A DNA stretch of 64,000 nt from Minisyncoccota bacterium (GTDB lineage: Bacteria > Patescibacteriota > Minisyncoccia > Phycocordibacterales > CSBR16-193). The position numbers were made by a program, and so were the translations under genes. Where the stretch lies: NCBI GenBank assembly GCA_040905715.1, contig JBBDRA010000003.1, forward strand, positions 263,142 to 327,141, written 5' to 3'. The notes beneath the pieces were generated by a model that searched no databases, was not told the origin of the DNA, and saw nothing but the letters and a program-made list of their open reading frames with translations. Positions 4,375-61,518 of the stretch are shown in pieces (the stretch's first letter is position 1; each line of letters begins with the position of its first letter).

Positions 4375-5058
4375 ATGAATCGTATAACAGTATTTTTTAT
4401 TCTTGTGTTTGTCGTGGCTAGTGCTGCCGGACTCGTGATCTGGATGAGCGCTCAGAGTGAACACGAAGATCTATTGGACCGCTCTCGCTCAGACAGTGTT
4501 GGTTCGGATAGTCTCATTCAAGCATCAGAGGATGATCGCGCAGATACAGAGCACGTTACAACTAATTCAGAACAAGCTACTATGGGAACAAAAAACGTAA
4601 CGCTTACAACATCGAAGGGAGATATTTCAATGGAATTATATGGCGATGATTTTCCAAACACGGTCGGTAACTTCGTAAAACTTGCTAACGAGGAATTTTA
4701 TGACGGCATTATATTTCACCGGGTTATTGAGGGATTTATGATCCAGGGAGGTGATCCGACAGGCACAGGGACCGGCGGACCCGGGTACGCCTTTGAGGAC
4801 GAGCTTAAACCGGAGTCAGAAGCTGCTCAGCGCGGCTATGCCAGAGGAACAGTGGCGATGGCAAACAGTGGTCCGGATACGAACGGAAGTCAGTTCTTCA
4901 TTGTGCACCAAGATGCACCGCTTCCGTATCAATACACGATCTTTGGCCGGGTTACGAGTGGCATGGATGTTGTCGATGCCATAGCAACAAGTGAGACTGA
5001 TGGGGGTGACAAGCCTCTGGAAGACATAGTGATCGAAAAGGCTGTTGTTGAAGAATAA
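4375..5058 (+). CDS. cyclophilin-type peptidyl-prolyl cis-trans isomerase with N-terminal membrane anchor
   Basis: FHRVIEGFMIQGGDPTGTGTGGPGY...TVAMANSGPDTNGSQFFIVH are cyclophilin signatures. Start set at ATG 4375, preceded by AGGA; the track ORF uses a GTG inside the upstream gene. Confidence 0.85.
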   Translation: MNRITVFFILVFVVASAAGLVIWMSAQSEHEDLLDRSRSDSVGSDSLIQASEDDRADTEHVTTNSEQATMGTKNVTLTTSKGDISMELYGDDFPNTVGNFVKLANEEFYDGIIFHRVIEGFMIQGGDPTGTGTGGPGYAFEDELKPESEAAQRGYARGTVAMANSGPDTNGSQFFIVHQDAPLPYQYTIFGRVTSGMDVVDAIATSETDGGDKPLEDIVIEKAVVEE

Positions 5059-10425: not shown

Positions 10426-11073
10426 TTATAAACGAATGATCGATGATCGAGAGACAACCCCGTAAGACAGGTCGACGATAAGCTCAAGTCCCTCGCAGGC
10501 TCCGAATTTATGGTCCGTGATCCTGTCGGAGCCAAGTTCCCAGCAGCACCCGCTCCAGGCGATCATTGCCGCCATAAGGATATTATGACCGACAATAAAT
10601 ATGTTGCGTCTCTTGTTTTTTTGAACAGTTTGGAGAAGCCTACTCCAGGCGCTTGTGGCAAGATCCTTGAGTATTTCGCATTCCTTCTCGTGACCACGAA
10701 AACTGTAGGAGTCAAGCGCACTGCTCATGACGCTGTTCATGAAGATCTGCATGCTGTCTCGAATGTACGTATCCGATGCATCCTTGCCTTGAGGGTAGAA
10801 AAGCTCAGGCATTTCTACTCTCCTGATACTGCATTCTTCCATTACCTCCATGATCGTTTTGATTCCTATTGTGGCTTGCGATGTCACGATGAGATCGAAA
10901 ACCTTTGCGCCGTTGTGATTTTGAAAGTATTTCCTCAGCTGCTTGGCGCGGTTCGCTCCTTTTTGAGTGAGTTGCTGTGGCAGGTCCTTGATCTCTGTTG
11001 GGTAGGGTAGTTTGACCTCTTCTGCCGGTAGCACCAAGGTAAAACGTGCCTCATTAGGTCCAAGTGAGCTCAT
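10426..11073 (-). CDS. histidine-phosphatase-superfamily-like protein (phosphoglycerate mutase fold), catalytic RHG motif apparently not conserved
   Basis: Overall pattern follows His-phosphatase branch 1 (..LVLPAEE.. where LVRHGE is expected; C-terminal IFIVGHNILMAAM resembles the VxHG motif). Assignment is tentative. Confidence 0.35.
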   Translation of the reverse strand: MSSLGPNEARFTLVLPAEEVKLPYPTEIKDLPQQLTQKGANRAKQLRKYFQNHNGAKVFDLIVTSQATIGIKTIMEVMEECSIRRVEMPELFYPQGKDASDTYIRDSMQIFMNSVMSSALDSYSFRGHEKECEILKDLATSAWSRLLQTVQKNKRRNIFIVGHNILMAAMIAWSGCCWELGSDRITDHKFGACEGLELIVDLSYGVVSRSSIIRL

Positions 11074-42016: not shown

Positions 42017-43342
42017 CTAGCCCCAAAACCACGAAAGAAGAACGAGAGCAAGCGCGATGAGCGGCAGGTAGCGAACTGACGTAATGACCCACCAAGCAGT
42101 TTTACGCCACGGAGTACCTAGATTATCAACAAGAGTTGCTCGTGGAAGTAGCCACGTAATAAGCGCCCCACCGACGATCGCTGAGGCAACCACGATCTGG
42201 TTAGCGGCAAAGAGATCAAGAACTTGTAGAAATGGTGTGCCGCCGACAGTTAGCTCAAGCGGTGAAAAACTTAGGGCTGCGAGTGTGCCAAGAGGGAACA
42301 CCAGAAGAAAAGAAATAAATACAGCTTTCCAATCGCTTAGGCGCCACTCCTCTTTGAACGCTGTCTTTACAACCTCCATCCCCGCAACACATGAACTAAA
42401 GGCGGCTAAGAAAAATAACCAGAAAAATAGAATAGCCAAAGTTGCTCCGTACGGCACAAAATCAAATGCATAAGGCAGCGCCTCAAATGCGAGGCGTGTT
42501 CCTTCGTCGGGATTGAGACCAACAGTGAATACCAGCGGAAAGAGCATTAGACCGGCCACGATCGCAAAGGAGGTCTCGACGATGGTGACAAAAAAGGTGG
42601 CCCGTGGAATGTTCGTCTTTTGAGGAAGGAAACTTCCGTACGTGATCAAGTATCCTTGACCGACAGCAAGAGAGTAAAAAGCTTGCCCGAACGCAAGCAG
42701 CCAAAGCGATGGCTGTGCGAATGAGGCAAGGTCAGGATTAAATAAAAATAAAACTGCTTCGCCGGCTCCCGGTAGGGTTAAACTGTACGCTGTGAGTACG
42801 AATACAATGATCGCTAAAAGCGGCATAAGAAGCTTTGCAAAGATCTCGATCGCTCGTACACCCACAATAACAATGAGAGCAGTCAGACCCGAAACGATCA
42901 TAAAGTAATGCAGAGAGTCGTAGCCTGAGAGAAATTCAGAGAACGGTTTAATGCCGGTTGTTGAGCTCCCGATCGCGTAAGCGAGTGTCCAGCCGGTAAT
43001 TACGATGTAGTAGCTCATAATGATAATAGTCAGACCTACAACGAGCCATCCAAACCAGCCAGCCGGCCGTAGGATCCTGCGAAAAGTACGCACCGGAGAT
43101 CCGCGCTGAAGCCGACCGGCCGAAAGCTCCAGCATCATAAGAGGCGTTCCAAGAAAAATAACCGCAATAAGGTATGCGATAACAAAGGCAGCGCCGCCGT
43201 TCTCACCTGCTAGGTAGGGGAAGCGCCAGATGTTACCCAGTCCAACAGCGGCAGCAATGGTGGCGTACACAAATGCACGCTCAGAACTCCACTGCACTCG
43301 GTGTTCACCAAACACATTTCGTAAGGATTGAAATAGATTCAT
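42017..43342 (-). CDS. neurotransmitter:sodium symporter (NSS/SLC6, LeuT-like) family transporter
   Basis: GLGNIWRFPYLAGENGGAAFVIAYL in TM1 is the NSS signature. 11-12 TM helices. Confidence 0.85.
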   Translation of the reverse strand: MNLFQSLRNVFGEHRVQWSSERAFVYATIAAAVGLGNIWRFPYLAGENGGAAFVIAYLIAVIFLGTPLMMLELSAGRLQRGSPVRTFRRILRPAGWFGWLVVGLTIIIMSYYIVITGWTLAYAIGSSTTGIKPFSEFLSGYDSLHYFMIVSGLTALIVIVGVRAIEIFAKLLMPLLAIIVFVLTAYSLTLPGAGEAVLFLFNPDLASFAQPSLWLLAFGQAFYSLAVGQGYLITYGSFLPQKTNIPRATFFVTIVETSFAIVAGLMLFPLVFTVGLNPDEGTRLAFEALPYAFDFVPYGATLAILFFWLFFLAAFSSCVAGMEVVKTAFKEEWRLSDWKAVFISFLLVFPLGTLAALSFSPLELTVGGTPFLQVLDLFAANQIVVASAIVGGALITWLLPRATLVDNLGTPWRKTAWWVITSVRYLPLIALALVLLSWFWG

Positions 43343-43458
43343 GAAGTGTTGGCTAACTATACGTTAGTTAAAAAAGTATATCACGATGAATTATATGAGT
43401 GTTTACTCATATCTTATTTATCCACACATTGTTATTGTAATAAAAGTAATGTGTTGCG

Positions 43459-43467
43459 TGTTATAAT
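43459..43467 (+). promoter_or_regulatory. extended -10 element TGtTATAAT upstream of the H1-like gene
   Basis: TG at 43459-43460, TATAAT at 43462-43467. No good -35. The leader to ATG 43632 would be ~160 nt. Confidence 0.3.
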
Positions 43468-43631
43468 TAGTAGCAAGAAAACGCCACAAGAGAAGACGAC
43501 GTTTTCGGGCCATTACGAATCTTCTGCTGCCAGCACACTCATGGATACAACGAAGTGCGGTCGACTGCAGAAGAACGCGCACCTGTTTGTCCGATTGTGG
43601 GCAGGCACGGCGCAATTAACCACAGTTCCTT

Positions 43632-43868
43632 ATGCCAGCAAAAAAGAAATCAACTTCAAAGCGCAAGAGCGCTGCTCGAAAGTCGAGCGCGCGTAAGACG
43701 TCGGCAAAACGAAAGCCGGCAAAGAAGAAGTCAACGGCACGAAAAACAACAGCGAAGCGAAAGCCTGCAAAGAAGAAAGCAGCTGCAAAACGAAAACCAG
43801 CTAAGAAAAAGTCGACCGCAAAAAGAAAAACAGCTCGCAAGAAGACAAGTACACGAAGAAAGCGATAG
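43632..43868 (+). CDS. lysine/alanine-rich histone H1-like nucleoid protein (Hc2/AlgP-type tail) built from AKRKPAKKK repeats
   Basis: 78 aa, about 45 percent Lys/Arg. Three tandem AKRKPAKKK(S/A)(T/A) units. An extended -10 (TGtTATAAT) lies upstream and a hairpin terminator downstream. Confidence 0.7.
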   Translation: MPAKKKSTSKRKSAARKSSARKTSAKRKPAKKKSTARKTTAKRKPAKKKAAAKRKPAKKKSTAKRKTARKKTSTRRKR

Positions 43869-43887
43869 GTGACATTTTCTCACGCTT

Positions 43888-43923
43888 AGAAAAATCACTC
43901 ACAGTACTGTGGGTGATTTTTCT
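43888..43923. terminator. bidirectional terminator between H1-like gene and ATP-grasp gene
   Basis: AAAAA-atcactcacag-ta-ctgtgggtgat-TTTTT (one G-U pair). Confidence 0.65.
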
Positions 43924-43998
43924 GTATTGACTCTCACACTACCTTCAGCTTAGATGTGTTGTGTGGTTGGGGTTGTAGGTCGTAGCAGGTGGTGTAAA

Positions 43999-44904
43999 TT
44001 AGTTTTCAGAACCTGAGACATGTGACAGCGAAGCATTCGCAGCTGTTTTTGATACGGCGTACTCTAATAGTAACTTTGCTATATTTTTGTTGGTATATGT
44101 TTCAAACATGTGAAATTGGGGAGAAGTGTTCACTTCAAGAACATACCATGTTCCGTTGTAATGCGTAAGGTCTATTCCTGCTATTTCTATGTTTTGGTAC
44201 TGTGCTGCGCGCTCACAGATGCTGATCGCTTCATCAGGAAGAGGAAGATGGTCTTTGTGATTACCCGGTCGATTCATTCTGAATTCTCCGTCATCTCTCG
44301 TGCGCCGGTATGAGTCTATGTACTGACCGTTAATAACGATGGCACGAATATCGTGGTCTACCGGGAGATATTCTTGGAGAATAACTCGTGGCCCGAGTTT
44401 GTCATATGCTTGACAGAGTGACGCAGCATTTTCTACTAAAATAACGTTGCGCCCCATGCTTCCGATCGTGGATTTCATAACCACAGGAAAGACAAGGGTA
44501 GGCGTGACGCTCTCGAGTGCTTGTGCGTTCTGGATCATAAGATAATTCGGCATCGGTATCGTGTGGTCAGCCGCACGTAAGAATAGCTTGTCCATGCTAA
44601 TCGATCCGTTCGCTGTGTTTTCCTCTATGATAGTCGCGCCGTGTCGCTGTAGATATTTTGCGATAACCATAACCTCGTTGTCAGCATCGCCGATCCCTCT
44701 AAAAATATAACAGTCGCTGTTAGTAACGTTTCGTCCGTTAGCATCAAAGAGACCGAACACATTGTTCTGTTCGCTCAGTATCAAAGACGAAACGGAAACA
44801 GCTTCAAATGTCACGCCAAGTTTCTCTGCCTCTTCTGCTAGTCGCTGTACGTCGTGTCCGGTAGGGTTGCCGATCAAGGTAATGTTCATAGTGTCATTAT
44901 ACAA
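43999..44904 (-). CDS. ATP-grasp ligase, RimK/GshB-like
   Basis: VILQEYLPVDHDIRAIVINGQ.., FRMNRPGNHKDHLP, WYVLEVNTSPQF are ATP-grasp motifs. Confidence 0.7.
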   Translation of the reverse strand: MYNDTMNITLIGNPTGHDVQRLAEEAEKLGVTFEAVSVSSLILSEQNNVFGLFDANGRNVTNSDCYIFRGIGDADNEVMVIAKYLQRHGATIIEENTANGSISMDKLFLRAADHTIPMPNYLMIQNAQALESVTPTLVFPVVMKSTIGSMGRNVILVENAASLCQAYDKLGPRVILQEYLPVDHDIRAIVINGQYIDSYRRTRDDGEFRMNRPGNHKDHLPLPDEAISICERAAQYQNIEIAGIDLTHYNGTWYVLEVNTSPQFHMFETYTNKNIAKLLLEYAVSKTAANASLSHVSGSEN

Positions 44905-44962
44905 ATCATATACAGTTAGGCGAATACAAAGGCGGTATATGTCAGTATGCTAGTATTAGGAT

Positions 44963-45376
44963 GTGAATAAGAGAGAATACATAGCACGCGGAATTATCTG
45001 TAGAAGAGATGAGATACTTTTGTGTAAAAATGTAGATCACGGACATCTTTACTTACCCGGTGGTCATGTTGAAGATGGTGAGTCCTCACAAGAGGCGTTG
45101 AAAAGGGAGATGCGAGAGGAGTCCGGCCGGGAAGTTATCGCAACAAGATTTGTGACAACCTTTGAAAACGAGTTCACGCAAAACGGCAGAGAGATACAGG
45201 AGCGGTGTGATGTATATTTGGCGCAGCTTGATATCGTTGAGGCTGTTCATAGTAAAGAGAAGCATATTGGCTTTCAGTGGATCTCTTTGGACCAGCTACA
45301 AACAGTACGTTTTTTGCCCGAGAAGATCTTGCTGACAGTTTTAGATATAATTCAAGCGAATAGATCTTTTTGGTAG
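44963..45376 (+). CDS. NUDIX hydrolase
   Basis: Nudix box GGHVEDGESSQEALKREMREESG. Confidence 0.85.
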   Translation: MNKREYIARGIICRRDEILLCKNVDHGHLYLPGGHVEDGESSQEALKREMREESGREVIATRFVTTFENEFTQNGREIQERCDVYLAQLDIVEAVHSKEKHIGFQWISLDQLQTVRFLPEKILLTVLDIIQANRSFW

Positions 45377-45457
45377 TGCAGTATCTTCTCTGGTATTTGT
45401 GTTAGAATATTGCTTAATTGTCAGGTTCTTTATTAATTACTTAATTCCTTATATATA

Positions 45458-46372
45458 ATGAAACAATTTATCGTAATACTAGTGATCGTTCTGATAGCTT
45501 TGGGTGTATTCGGTTGGACGCAGGGTTGGTTTAACAGTGATCTCACTACTGAACCTGATACCGAGCAAGATGGTGAAAATGATGAGAACTCAACAGGCAC
45601 AACAACCGATAAGGAAGATGGAGTTGGACTGGATGAAGATGGTGGAGTCATCGGTTCGTCTGCGGGTGATCGTGACATTATGGCGTATCAGTACGGCGAT
45701 GGTTCTACGGAACTACTCTTTGTGGGTGGTGTTCATGGTGGATATAGCGCAAATACCGCACTGGTCGCGTTCGAGGTAATGGATTGGCTGGAAGAGAATC
45801 CGAATGTTATTCCGGAGAATGTGAAGGTAACTGTTATCCCTGTCTTGAATCCGGACGGACTGAACGAAGTTGTTGGTACAACGGGTCGGTTCTCAGTGTC
45901 TGATATTCCGTCTGGAGATCGATCAGCCGGTCGGTTTAACGCAAACAATGTAGATTTGAATCGTAACTTCGATTGTAACTGGCAGTCTACCGGCACATGG
46001 CAAAGTCAGGAAGTTGATGCCGGAGACAGCGTATTCTCTGAACCGGAAAGTCAGGCACTTCGAGACTATATTCGTTCAAACGAACCTGACGCAGCGGTCG
46101 TATTCTTTAGTGCGGCGGGTGAGGTAGTTGCTTCAAGCTGTAACAACGATTCACTCCCGGAAACACAGCAGATGGTCAGTACCTACGCTAATGCGTCCGG
46201 GTACACCGCACAGGAAACGTTCGGATACTATGACATTACCGGAGACGCGGTTGATTGGATGGCTAAGCAAGGTATCCCGGCTATTAGTGTAGTGCTTGGA
46301 TCACATAATTCAGCTGAATGGAGCAAGAATAGAGCGGGTATTGAGGCATTGTTTGAGCGGTACGAAAACTAG
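45458..46372 (+). CDS. M14-like zinc carboxypeptidase / gamma-D-glutamyl peptidase-like, membrane anchored (paralog 1)
   Basis: N-terminal TM. GGVHGGY.., NPDGLN, and the M14 block GRFNANNVDLNRNFDCNW. Tandem paralog of the next gene. Confidence 0.6.
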   Translation: MKQFIVILVIVLIALGVFGWTQGWFNSDLTTEPDTEQDGENDENSTGTTTDKEDGVGLDEDGGVIGSSAGDRDIMAYQYGDGSTELLFVGGVHGGYSANTALVAFEVMDWLEENPNVIPENVKVTVIPVLNPDGLNEVVGTTGRFSVSDIPSGDRSAGRFNANNVDLNRNFDCNWQSTGTWQSQEVDAGDSVFSEPESQALRDYIRSNEPDAAVVFFSAAGEVVASSCNNDSLPETQQMVSTYANASGYTAQETFGYYDITGDAVDWMAKQGIPAISVVLGSHNSAEWSKNRAGIEALFERYEN

Positions 46373-46415
46373 CAACGCACTGTAAGCCATAAGAAATAAA
46401 TCGGAATCTATAAAA

Positions 46416-47294
46416 ATGGATAAAAAAACATGGGTCATTATTAGCGTTGTTGCCTGTGTCGGACTCGGTCTTATTATTTTGTTTCTCCTTCTTCCCGGAG
46501 ATTCAGAGCCGGCCAAAACTGCAACGTCAACACCGGAGATAACAAGGGACGAGCCGGTGCGTAGCGTGATCGGTACATCGGTAGAAGGCCGTGAGATAGA
46601 GGCGTATACGTTTGGAAACAGTGAAAAACATGTTGCGTTTGTCGGAGGTATTCACGGTGGATATGAATGGAACAGCATTCTTCTGGCGTATCAAATGATG
46701 GATCATCTGGAGGAGTACCCCGAGGTGATACCAGATGATGTGCGTGTTACTATTATTCCATCGGCGAATCCTGACGGGCTGGCACGTGTTATGGGTACAA
46801 CAACCGGACGATTTGCTGCAGCTGATGCGCCGCCTACGGAGCAGACGACAGAAGGTCGGTTTAATGCGAATGGGGTTGACCTCAATCGGAACTTTGATTG
46901 TAACTGGGCGCCTGAGAGTAGTTGGCGTGGCGAGACTGTGAGCGCAGGTACCGAAGCGTTCTCAGAGCCGGAAGCTATTGCGATCCGCACCTTTGTTCAA
47001 AATACAGATCCTGATGCGGTGATCTTCTGGCACAGTGCGGCCGGGGCGGTTTACGGATCCGAGTGTAATGACGGAATCCTTCCGGGAACGCTCGAGATCA
47101 TGAATACGTACGCTGACGCTGCCGGCTATGCCGCAGTGCCGTCGTTCGATGCGTATCCTATTACCGGCGATGTGGAGGGCTGGCTGGCTTCTATCGGTGT
47201 TCCATCGATTACGGTTGAACTCAGTACGCATGAAGATCTGGAGTGGGAAAAGAACAAAGCCGGGGTAGAAGCGATCCTTCGAAGTGTTGAGTAA
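46416..47294 (+). CDS. M14-like zinc carboxypeptidase-like, membrane anchored (paralog 2)
   Basis: GGIHGGYEWNS, NPDGLA, GRFNANGVDLNRNFDCNW. Collinear with paralog 1 over the whole length. Confidence 0.6.
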   Translation: MDKKTWVIISVVACVGLGLIILFLLLPGDSEPAKTATSTPEITRDEPVRSVIGTSVEGREIEAYTFGNSEKHVAFVGGIHGGYEWNSILLAYQMMDHLEEYPEVIPDDVRVTIIPSANPDGLARVMGTTTGRFAAADAPPTEQTTEGRFNANGVDLNRNFDCNWAPESSWRGETVSAGTEAFSEPEAIAIRTFVQNTDPDAVIFWHSAAGAVYGSECNDGILPGTLEIMNTYADAAGYAAVPSFDAYPITGDVEGWLASIGVPSITVELSTHEDLEWEKNKAGVEAILRSVE

Positions 47295-60306: not shown

Positions 60307-61518
60307 TTAACCGAGAATGGCATCAAAATCCTCGCTGTCGGCGGTCATAAAGTAGAAGTTAACTGCTGCCAGTATCAACAGTGCGGCGATAGTTATGACG
60401 AAGGCGATCTCGAAGACGTTCGCAAAAAGAAAAATGCCGGCAAAGAGGAAAAGCTTCACGCTCATCGCGGTCACGTTTTTGAGTACAGCTGTTTTGAGCG
60501 GATCAATACGTCGAGCGCGAATAAATAGGTTACTGTCGAGCGGAATACTGACGAAGAGCGCAAAGATACCGACAAGTACGATACTGATGTAGTAAAACGG
60601 ACTCCAGTCAATGGTCATGCGAATAACCCAGATCAAGGCAAGCGCCAGAGCGCCGGTCATGATAAGTTTTTCCCGGGTTCGGGCATTTATACGGCGGGTA
60701 AAGAGAGAAAAAATAATTGTCGTAGCAGCGATCAGTACCGGTATTACCGCTACGGATTCGATAGATTGAAAGATCAGGAAAATAAAGATCGGCCAGAGAA
60801 CTAATTCTGAAAAGTTATGGATCGAATACAATCCATTGGTAATGAAATTGTTCTTCTCAACAGGACTTTTGAAAAAATTCAAAAAGGAAGAGAAACGGTC
60901 CCATTGGGTTGGCTTGTCAGAAAATGTGTTCACATAGATAAGCGGTATGATCGAAGCGAAGAACAACGTGATACTTGCTGCCAGTAGCATTGTTTGACTA
61001 CCAAAGGCAAGAATGATCGCGCCGGCGATCGGCCCCATCATGGTGGCAACTTGCTTGGCACTGTAGAGGGCGCCGGTTTTGCCGTTGGTCTGTTTCGGGT
61101 CATCGTTACTTTTGATAAACAGATAAAGGTGGGCAACCCAGTACAGTGCGTCGTAGAGAGCGCCGAGAAAGGCGAGGGCAATAAGGATCACGAAGCTGTC
61201 TACTGTTAGAAAGTCAAATGCAATAAAATATCCAATGATCGCAAAATTTGATAAGACAATGACCCAGCGAGCGCCAATACGACGAATAAGGTCACCGGCA
61301 AGAAAGTTAAGGGGGACGTTTATTAAGTGGAAGAGGAAGTAGTAGCCGATAATGGCATTAAGTGAGTAGCCCATCTGATACATCAGGATCGGAATAAAAA
61401 TGGTGATCAGTGAACGGGCGATAACATGCAGCCAGATGGAGAGTTCAAACAACCAGAAATCATCTTTCAGCAAATTTCTGATCGCGTGGTGATGATGGTA
61501 GAAATGAAATAACTGCAT
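60307..61518 (-). CDS. MFS transporter
   Basis: 403 aa, 12 TM helices in 6+6 arrangement, with a basic loop (TRRINARTREK) between TM2 and TM3. Confidence 0.7.
   Translation of the reverse strand: MQLFHFYHHHHAIRNLLKDDFWLFELSIWLHVIARSLITIFIPILMYQMGYSLNAIIGYYFLFHLINVPLNFLAGDLIRRIGARWVIVLSNFAIIGYFIAFDFLTVDSFVILIALAFLGALYDALYWVAHLYLFIKSNDDPKQTNGKTGALYSAKQVATMMGPIAGAIILAFGSQTMLLAASITLFFASIIPLIYVNTFSDKPTQWDRFSSFLNFFKSPVEKNNFITNGLYSIHNFSELVLWPIFIFLIFQSIESVAVIPVLIAATTIIFSLFTRRINARTREKLIMTGALALALIWVIRMTIDWSPFYYISIVLVGIFALFVSIPLDSNLFIRARRIDPLKTAVLKNVTAMSVKLFLFAGIFLFANVFEIAFVITIAALLILAAVNFYFMTADSEDFDAILG

Follow-up and report, generated by a model that had tools for sequence, protein, structure and literature searches.

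We analyzed a 64,000-nucleotide (nt) stretch of DNA (hereafter, the window) that comprises positions 263,142 to 327,141 of contig JBBDRA010000003.1 (assembly GCA_040905715.1) from a Candidatus Paceibacterota bacterium (candidate phyla radiation, CPR/Patescibacteria). The guanine-plus-cytosine (GC) content of the window is 46 to 47%. Its plus strand carries an open reading frame (ORF) that runs from an ATG at 43632 to a TAG at 43866–43868 and encodes a lysine-rich protein of 78 amino acids (aa), MPAKKKSTSKRKSAARKSSARKTSAKRKPAKKKSTARKTTAKRKPAKKKAAAKRKPAKKKSTAKRKTARKKTSTRRKR. The ORF is called as a gene in the record that was matched to the window, contig JBBDKD010000006.1 of assembly GCA_040879545.1. 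An earlier reading of this DNA, made from the letters alone (hereafter, the sequence-only reading), had proposed that the ORF codes for a histone H1-like protein with three AKRKPAKKK units. The start codon, the frame, the length, and the three units are all there, and an orthologue together with the pattern of substitutions, both considered below, supports a stand-alone gene.

The composition of the protein is K28 A15 R12 S9 T9 P4 M1. Lysine and arginine thus make up 51% of the chain, while acidic (D/E), aromatic, and aliphatic-hydrophobic residues are missing altogether, and neither a signal peptide nor a globular domain was found. Among the 520 window ORFs of at least 35 aa, this is the only one with such a composition at a length of at least 40 aa; the sole other ORF in the window that passes the composition filter (61235–61342) is 35 aa long and nonrepetitive. 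Since the composition is unique among the longer ORFs and a syntenic orthologue exists, the ORF is more than a chance product. The features considered in this work are collected in Table 1.

Table 1. Positions of the lysine-rich gene, its predicted expression signals, and other genes discussed in the text (window coordinates)
Feature	Coordinates	Strand	Remarks
Coding sequence (CDS) of the 78-aa polycationic protein	43632..43868	+	14 basic clusters, net charge +40, ~8.8 kDa
Repeat core	43704..43844	+	AKRKPAKKK at 43704-43730, 43752-43778, and 43785-43811; degenerate AKRKTARKK at 43818-43844
Extended -10 element TGTTATAAT	43459..43467	+	Read from the sequence; no -35; predicted transcription start near 43474
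Predicted 5′ leader, ~160 nt	43474..43631	+	Counterpart at locus L009, 4710-4847 (-); core at 43477-43526
Bidirectional intrinsic terminator hairpin	43887..43924	.	17-base pair stem with an A-run on one side and a U-run on the other; also serves the convergent RimK-like gene
Divergent Na+-dependent SNF transporter gene	42017-43342	-	Neighboring gene
Extended -10 element of the SNF gene, TGATATACT	43383 to 43375	-	Conserved at L009; ~26 nt before the SNF ATG
Convergent RimK-like ATP-grasp ligase gene	43999-44904	-	Neighboring gene
SET-domain gene, 138 aa	3251-3667	-	PF00856, 98.8 bits

The starts of the exact AKRKPAKKK units are at residues 25, 41, and 52; a fourth, degenerate copy (AKRKTARKK) follows at residue 63. 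At the DNA level, TRF reported a period of 33 nt with 2.7 copies and a 75% match, and a repeat search found four copies with 48/33/33-nt spacing and 62 to 80% identity. The exact units account for 27 of the 78 residues, so the description of the protein as made almost entirely of them was an overstatement. Units 1 and 2 are offset by 16 aa, and hence the units are not strictly tandem, as the sequence-only reading had it; the residues that follow units 1, 2, and 3 are ST, AA, and ST rather than uniformly (S/A)T; and proline contributes just four residues (5%), which makes the protein rich in Lys/Arg/Ala/Ser/Thr rather than in Lys/Ala/Pro. A different description fits better. The entire chain consists of 14 clusters of two to four basic residues separated by spacers of two or three small residues (Ala, Ser, Thr, or Pro), with a period of 5 to 6 aa. 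The autocorrelation of charge has its maxima at lags of 5, 6, and 11 residues, and none of 2000 shuffled sequences matched the observed values. AlphaFold2 run without an alignment predicted no fold (predicted template modeling score of 0.23), and the sole structure in the model is a helix at residues 62 to 77.

An orthologous locus, L009, was found in a metagenome-assembled genome of a related Paceibacterota bacterium (GCA_040879455.1; GC content, 52.5%), whose SNF transporter is 80% identical to that of the window. There, a 62-aa ORF (4521–4709, minus strand) with the sequence MPAAKKRSASKRKSARKSSAKRSSARKSSAKRKPAKRKSTTKRKTTAKRKTARKKTSARKRR lies beside the SNF gene in the same position and orientation. 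It is not called as a gene. The charge period of 5 to 6 aa is present in both orthologues (0 of 2000 shuffles in either case). Comparing the number of repeats among related genomes, a check that the sequence-only reading had suggested, gave 14 modules in the window and 11 at L009, and the difference includes the clean loss of one 11-codon unit. The number of modules clearly changes between species and is adjustable in evolution. The expected length variation was thus observed as a difference between species (78 versus 62 aa), whereas the case for slippage of the DNA repeats is weak: the units are only 62 to 80% identical, have diverged at synonymous sites, and contain no long identical tracts, so rapid slippage within a population is not expected.

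Three reading frames are open across the region. This openness comes with the composition: no codon for K, R, A, S, T, or P yields the TAx or CAx triplets from which a stop could arise in the +1 frame or the register-shifted antisense frame. The frames can be compared by their substitutions. The three exact units differ at 7 of 27 nt positions, all of which are third codon positions and all synonymous in the claimed frame. When all four units were compared in this frame, 29 synonymous and 28 nonsynonymous codon differences were counted, with a mean BLOSUM62 score of +0.75. The antisense frame gave 25 and 31, respectively, with radical replacements (mean score of −1.42), and the remaining frames gave at most eight synonymous differences. 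No frame other than the claimed one pairs many synonymous changes with conservative replacements. The comparison between species gave the same picture. The 62 codons aligned between the window and L009 comprise 19 identical ones, 25 with synonymous differences, and 18 with nonsynonymous differences (mean score of +1.0); the differences are distributed over the three codon positions as 19/12/36. All indels have lengths divisible by three, and they include one whole 11-codon unit and one 5-codon module. In a six-frame control restricted to ungapped blocks of this alignment, the claimed frame had 25 synonymous and 18 nonsynonymous changes (+1.0), the antisense frame had 20 and 24 (−1.79), and all others had at most four synonymous changes. 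Judged by these substitutions, the plus-strand frame is under purifying selection for the charge pattern and for the small-residue spacers.

The antisense frame deserves separate consideration, since the product of the locus might not be the plus-strand ORF at all: either a 74-aa Phe-rich ORF on the opposite strand (43616–43840) would be the gene or the purine-rich tract would be noncoding. The antisense ORF is free of stops in the window as well as at L009, would be codirectional with the RimK-like and SNF genes, and scores best of the six frames in codon-usage log-likelihood (27.8 bits compared to 5.0 bits for the plus-strand ORF). It also shares its third codon positions with the claimed frame and therefore shows many synonymous changes, too (20 to 25). 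However, its openness is automatic, given the codon composition described above. Its replacements are radical (mean scores of −1.4 to −1.8, compared to +0.75 to +1.0), and changes such as CGA to AGA and AAG to CGC are silent or conservative on the plus strand only. The antisense ORF would have to start from a TTG located just 47 nt past a strong terminator and has no promoter, while the ATG of the plus-strand ORF is kept in the orthologue and its promoter and terminator are conserved. We thus regard a noncoding tract or an antisense gene as extremely unlikely. As a practical matter, an ORF of this kind could trap gene finders.

The extended −10 element of the lysine-rich gene precedes the ATG by ~165 nt. 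Because it has no −35, it escaped a consensus promoter scan, which requires one. The block that contains it, CGTGTTATAAT, is identical in the window and at L009. Downstream of the terminator-proximal end of the gene, the hairpin has a folding free energy of −24.4 kcal/mol (z score of −4.5; none of 200 shuffles was as stable) and reads as a hairpin followed by a U-run on both strands. Its position and shape are kept at L009, while the stem has changed from GAAAAAUCACUCACAG...CUGUGGGUGAUUUUUC in the window to GAAAAACACUCCGC...GCGGAGUGUUUUUC; retention of shape through a changed stem is the pattern expected of a functional hairpin. The gene's own extended −10 element and strong terminator, both pointed out in the sequence-only reading, are thus conserved. 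The high expression deduced from them does not follow, as these elements say nothing about the expression level.

Between the predicted transcription start and the ATG lies a long leader. Its first 50 nt are 92% identical to L009, more than any other 50-nt segment in the 1.9 kb of syntenic alignment; for comparison, the SNF coding sequence is 69.6% identical and other coding regions are 65 to 72% identical. Two inverted repeats, or hairpins, are conserved in the leader, GAAAACG-N16-CGUUUUC (43477–43506; GAAAACG-N16-CGTTTTC in DNA) and UCUUCUGC...GCAGAAGA (~43520–43574; TCTTCTGC...GCAGAAGA in DNA), the latter with one compensatory pair. Both are kept while their interiors vary. Rfam gave no match to the leader at gathering or permissive thresholds, its only hits being meaningless microRNA and ctRNA matches on the terminator hairpin, and the fold of the whole leader is not more stable than that of shuffled sequences (z score of −0.66). 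A coding function of the leader on either strand was rejected, as the frames break between the window and L009. The conserved segments make the leader a probable regulatory element, either an RNA element or a DNA operator, two forms that two sequences cannot separate. A leader of this length and conservation suggests controlled rather than simply high expression, possibly through feedback. By eye, many genes of the window appear to have a −10-like element 10 to 25 nt before the start codon, while the lysine-rich gene has its ~160-nt leader instead. The TATAAT-like elements at this short distance suggest very short leaders for many genes.

The start codon at 43632 is not preceded by a Shine-Dalgarno (SD) sequence. 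Among the starts of the 40 longest window ORFs (at least 200 aa), just 4 have even a partial SD motif, and the one full AGGAGG, found upstream of 10426–11073, overlaps an ORF on the opposite strand. Since SD motifs are nearly absent across the window, the missing SD is no argument against the gene. A subgroup of Parcubacteria has been reported to have no anti-SD motif (PMC9297842), and the scarcity of SD motifs in the window fits such a subgroup. Taken together, the selection pattern, the orthologue, and the conserved signals on both sides of the ORF indicate that it is very probably a real, independently transcribed, protein-coding small gene, whose product is presumably translated in vivo.

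The promoters of the lysine-rich gene and the SNF gene stand back to back, 76 nt apart and pointing away from each other, and a block between them (43399–43428) is conserved. On the other side, the RimK-like ligase gene belongs to a cluster (43999–47294) that also encodes a NUDIX hydrolase and two M14 carboxypeptidases. A ligase found together with carboxypeptidases recalls enzymes that attach amino acid tails and take them off. L009 (1507–3860) retains the NUDIX gene and the two M14 genes but has no RimK-like gene, and tblastn detected no remnant of it. A functional link between the lysine-rich gene and the adjacent RimK-like ligase was considered and rejected: the two genes are convergent, the ligase gene is absent from L009, and at another locus, L003, it is not accompanied by a lysine-rich gene. 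L003 is the one relative (57% identity) retrieved when metagenomes were searched with the neighboring RimK-like protein, and no lysine-rich ORF lies downstream of RimK in it. ORF translations from the region past this homologue (L003, 2091–2412) resemble read-through of a transfer RNA–like or otherwise structured RNA region. A search of genomes with the neighboring SNF protein retrieved a contig that ends inside the SNF gene.

To which known proteins the 78-aa protein can be related was assessed with profile models. Its sole matches in Pfam and NCBIfam are the Hc2 and Burkholderia H1-like models, and all of them are below threshold: 20 bits against a cutoff of 40 for Pfam HC2 (PF07382; the orthologue scored 14.8 bits), 16.8 bits against 135 for NCBIfam histone_lik_HC2 (NF038052), and 17.5 bits against 80 for hist_H1_lk_Burk (NF038053). 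No linker-histone, histone-fold, or HU/IHF domain was detected by Pfam and NCBIfam, by a PDB sequence search, or in the predicted fold. The protein thus cannot be shown to belong to any named family, and its resemblance to H1-like proteins is one of architecture and composition. Accordingly, of the likeness to Hc2, BpH1, and H1 put forward in the sequence-only reading, the composition and the spaced basic clusters stand, but family membership does not, the scores being far below the cutoffs. The protein does have the features of a generic class, bacterial lysine-rich low-complexity H1-like polycations, as seen from its K/R content, lack of D/E, charge spacing, number of repeats, and expression signals.

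Among the families, chlamydial Hc2 (hctB) gave the best, though weak, model match. Hc2 consists of evenly spaced basic pentamers in variable number and binds both DNA and RNA; it is 165 to 237 aa long, its pentamers contain two basic residues and are arranged in 36-aa elements, and its flanks are conserved (PMC2848022). Like Hc2, the 78-aa protein is a domain-free lysine-rich region in which basic residues recur at even intervals between small A/T/P/S spacers, has no acidic residues in the basic region, and gains or loses repeats in frame between strains or species. Unlike Hc2, with its conserved flanks and nonrepetitive C-terminal part, it is made up of modules throughout. These modules are 5 to 6 aa long with two to four basic residues, typically three rather than two, and the higher-order unit is 11 aa rather than 36 aa. 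The host also differs, being a CPR bacterium without a known developmental cycle. In architecture, Hc2 and BpH1 of Bordetella are its nearest counterparts; both are chains of basic pentamers with small spacers and no acidic residues (PMC2848022). With BpH1 and the H1-like proteins of Burkholderia and Ralstonia, the protein shares Lys/Ala-rich pentamer repeats, length polymorphism, and presumed nonspecific DNA binding. Those proteins span 149 to 231 aa. The protein described here contains more Arg, Ser, and Thr and less Ala and Pro, and it is less than half the size of Hc2 and BpH1. The C-terminal domain of eukaryotic H1, with its SPKK-type motifs, is likewise a disordered K/A/S/T/P polycation, and Ser and Thr residues beside the basic clusters of the 78-aa protein could in principle be phosphorylated as well; in contrast to H1, there is no winged-helix globular domain (Pfam and AlphaFold2), no nucleosome context, and little proline.

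From its composition and these analogues, we propose with moderate confidence that the 78-aa protein is a minimal nucleoid-associated protein, that is, a disordered polycation that would bind nucleic acid nonspecifically. In this model, the protein would be expressed from the conserved extended −10 element, through the long conserved leader, where feedback is possible, to the bidirectional terminator. It would then bind the phosphate backbone or the grooves of nucleic acid electrostatically and without sequence specificity, neutralizing charge and condensing or coating DNA and probably RNA. In such a role, its function would be analogous, in minimal form, to that of the H1 C-terminal tail, Hc2, and Bordetella BpH1.

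Several observations weigh against this proposal. No homology to a characterized DNA-binding protein can be established. Against 1.84 billion representative sequences, phmmer returned two irrelevant matches (a tail-anchored, actinobacterial-looking protein and a T-box protein), and no match was found in PDB (E values up to 10) or PHROGs. A word-index homology search, too, gave no matches at E ≤ 1e-3 and six weak ones at E ≤ 10, and the exact 78-aa sequence is missing from a collection of 15 billion proteins. In viral contigs, 260 matches to peptide patterns were found, none of which was confirmed, and a 29-mer of the leader was absent. These homology searches are uninformative because of the low complexity of the protein. 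Only one orthologue was found. In the next relative, L010 (SNF 77% identical), the syntenic site does not carry the lysine-rich gene, nor does it in a relative whose SNF is 63% identical. Part of the synonymous-site signal is shared with the antisense frame and is thus not specific to the coding frame. Further, a polycation binds any polyanion, and composition alone does not select DNA over ribosomal RNA (rRNA), mRNA, or polyphosphate.

The protein could instead associate mainly with RNA or ribosomes, serving as an rRNA counter-ion, a chaperone, or a translational repressor rather than a nucleoid protein. There are precedents: Hc2 has a high affinity for RNA and acts as a repressor of translation (PMC2848022), and Parcubacteria have reduced ribosomes, an Ala/Lys-rich extension on uS19, and subgroups without anti-SD motifs (PMC9297842), in line with the SD-poor window. 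The highly conserved leader could then be the target of autoregulation at the RNA level. However, the lysine-rich gene is not adjacent to ribosomal or translation genes, none of the ribosomal protein families in Pfam or NCBIfam resembles the protein, and absence from the syntenic site in the relative with the 77% identical SNF would be unusual for a core ribosomal component. We therefore consider a predominantly ribosomal or RNA-directed role rather unlikely.

Another polyanion, such as polyphosphate in granules, might be tethered or organized by the protein in the way attributed to the KPAA tail of Pseudomonas AlgP. AlgP, which is H1-like and lysine-rich, localizes to polyphosphate granules and spaces them via its repeat tail (PMC9239181), and a charge of +40 in 78 aa would bind polyphosphate strongly. 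The tails of AlgP and PhaF are, like the protein studied here, H1-like lysine-rich disordered repeats of variable number that bind DNA or polyanions, although for the 78-aa protein such binding is assumed by analogy. The likeness does not extend further, as AlgP and PhaF have a structured helical N-terminal domain and KPAA repeats with a period of four and a single basic residue. The 78-aa protein has neither, and no polyphosphate genes were seen near the locus, which makes a function in granule organization very unlikely.

The sequence-only reading had also seen in the lysine-rich gene and a SET-domain gene a hint of a chromatin-like modification axis. The SET gene on the same contig is real (Table 1), but a link to the lysine-rich gene is unsupported: it is located ~40 kb away, among genes for a CitMHS transporter, an M23 peptidase, and a cyclophilin. 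The 138-aa SET protein weakly resembles the SET part of Legionella LegAS4/AnkI. If it methylated the 78-aa protein, which offers 28 lysines, a chromatin-like system compatible with the nucleoid role would result, as suggested by analogy with cpnSET, which interacts with Hc1 and Hc2 and methylates Hc1, and with archaeal Go1-SET, which methylates MC1-alpha (PMC3980110). On the other hand, the NUE protein of Chlamydia trachomatis did not methylate Hc1 (PMC3980110), and the two genes have unrelated neighborhoods. We thus find such a substrate relationship decidedly unlikely.

The permissive homology search turned up two sets of small proteins that resemble the 78-aa protein. P0006 (L006/L007; L006 1664–1807) is 47 aa long when read from an internal ATG, is preceded by an AGGAGG SD sequence, and has the form MPAKKRTT...SRKKR; P0003 (L004/L005; L004 10071–10207) is 45 aa long from an internal ATG and reads MPVKKKKVAKRKPAKKK..., starting with MPVKK. 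Both contain AKRKPAK[KR]K units and the “+++..” charge pattern, with a K+R content of 51 to 58%, and each gene is accompanied by a promoter-like or SD signal and by a terminator of its own. They are found in unrelated contexts. The L004 contig, which carries SLH-domain, riboflavin, and RelA genes, is unlike a CPR genome, and the leader of the lysine-rich gene was not found with either look-alike in L006 and L004. The likeness may reflect homology or convergence, which are not separable here, as the search selects on shared 5-mers. For both P0006 and P0003, the called start lies farther upstream in the same frame, whereas the SD sequence (L006) or a TATAAT (L004) favors the internal MPAKK or MPVKK start. 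Since the orthologue was not called, the look-alikes were mis-started, and phmmer returned next to nothing, small polycation genes of this kind are probably undercounted, being either missed or mis-started by gene callers.

A broader and quite unlikely extension of these observations is that ultra-small (45 to 78 aa), domain-free “basic-triplet” polycations form a widespread family that has gone unnoticed because gene callers skip or mis-start the genes and hidden Markov model (HMM) tools cancel the scores. In Paceibacterota without SD sequences, the protein described here would be a principal counter-ion of the nucleoid or ribosome, with its dosage set through the conserved, structured leader as an autoregulatory RNA or operator, and its charge could be tuned by SET methylation of lysines or by Ser/Thr phosphorylation.

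The locus exposes a technical blind spot in gene calling and homology search. The finding extends the known class of lysine-rich H1-like bacterial proteins, here in a minimal form, and does not introduce a new mechanism or system. For the packaging of DNA in the tiny, reduced-genome cells of CPR/Patescibacteria, a minimal stand-alone polycation resembling the tail of H1 would be a simple candidate.

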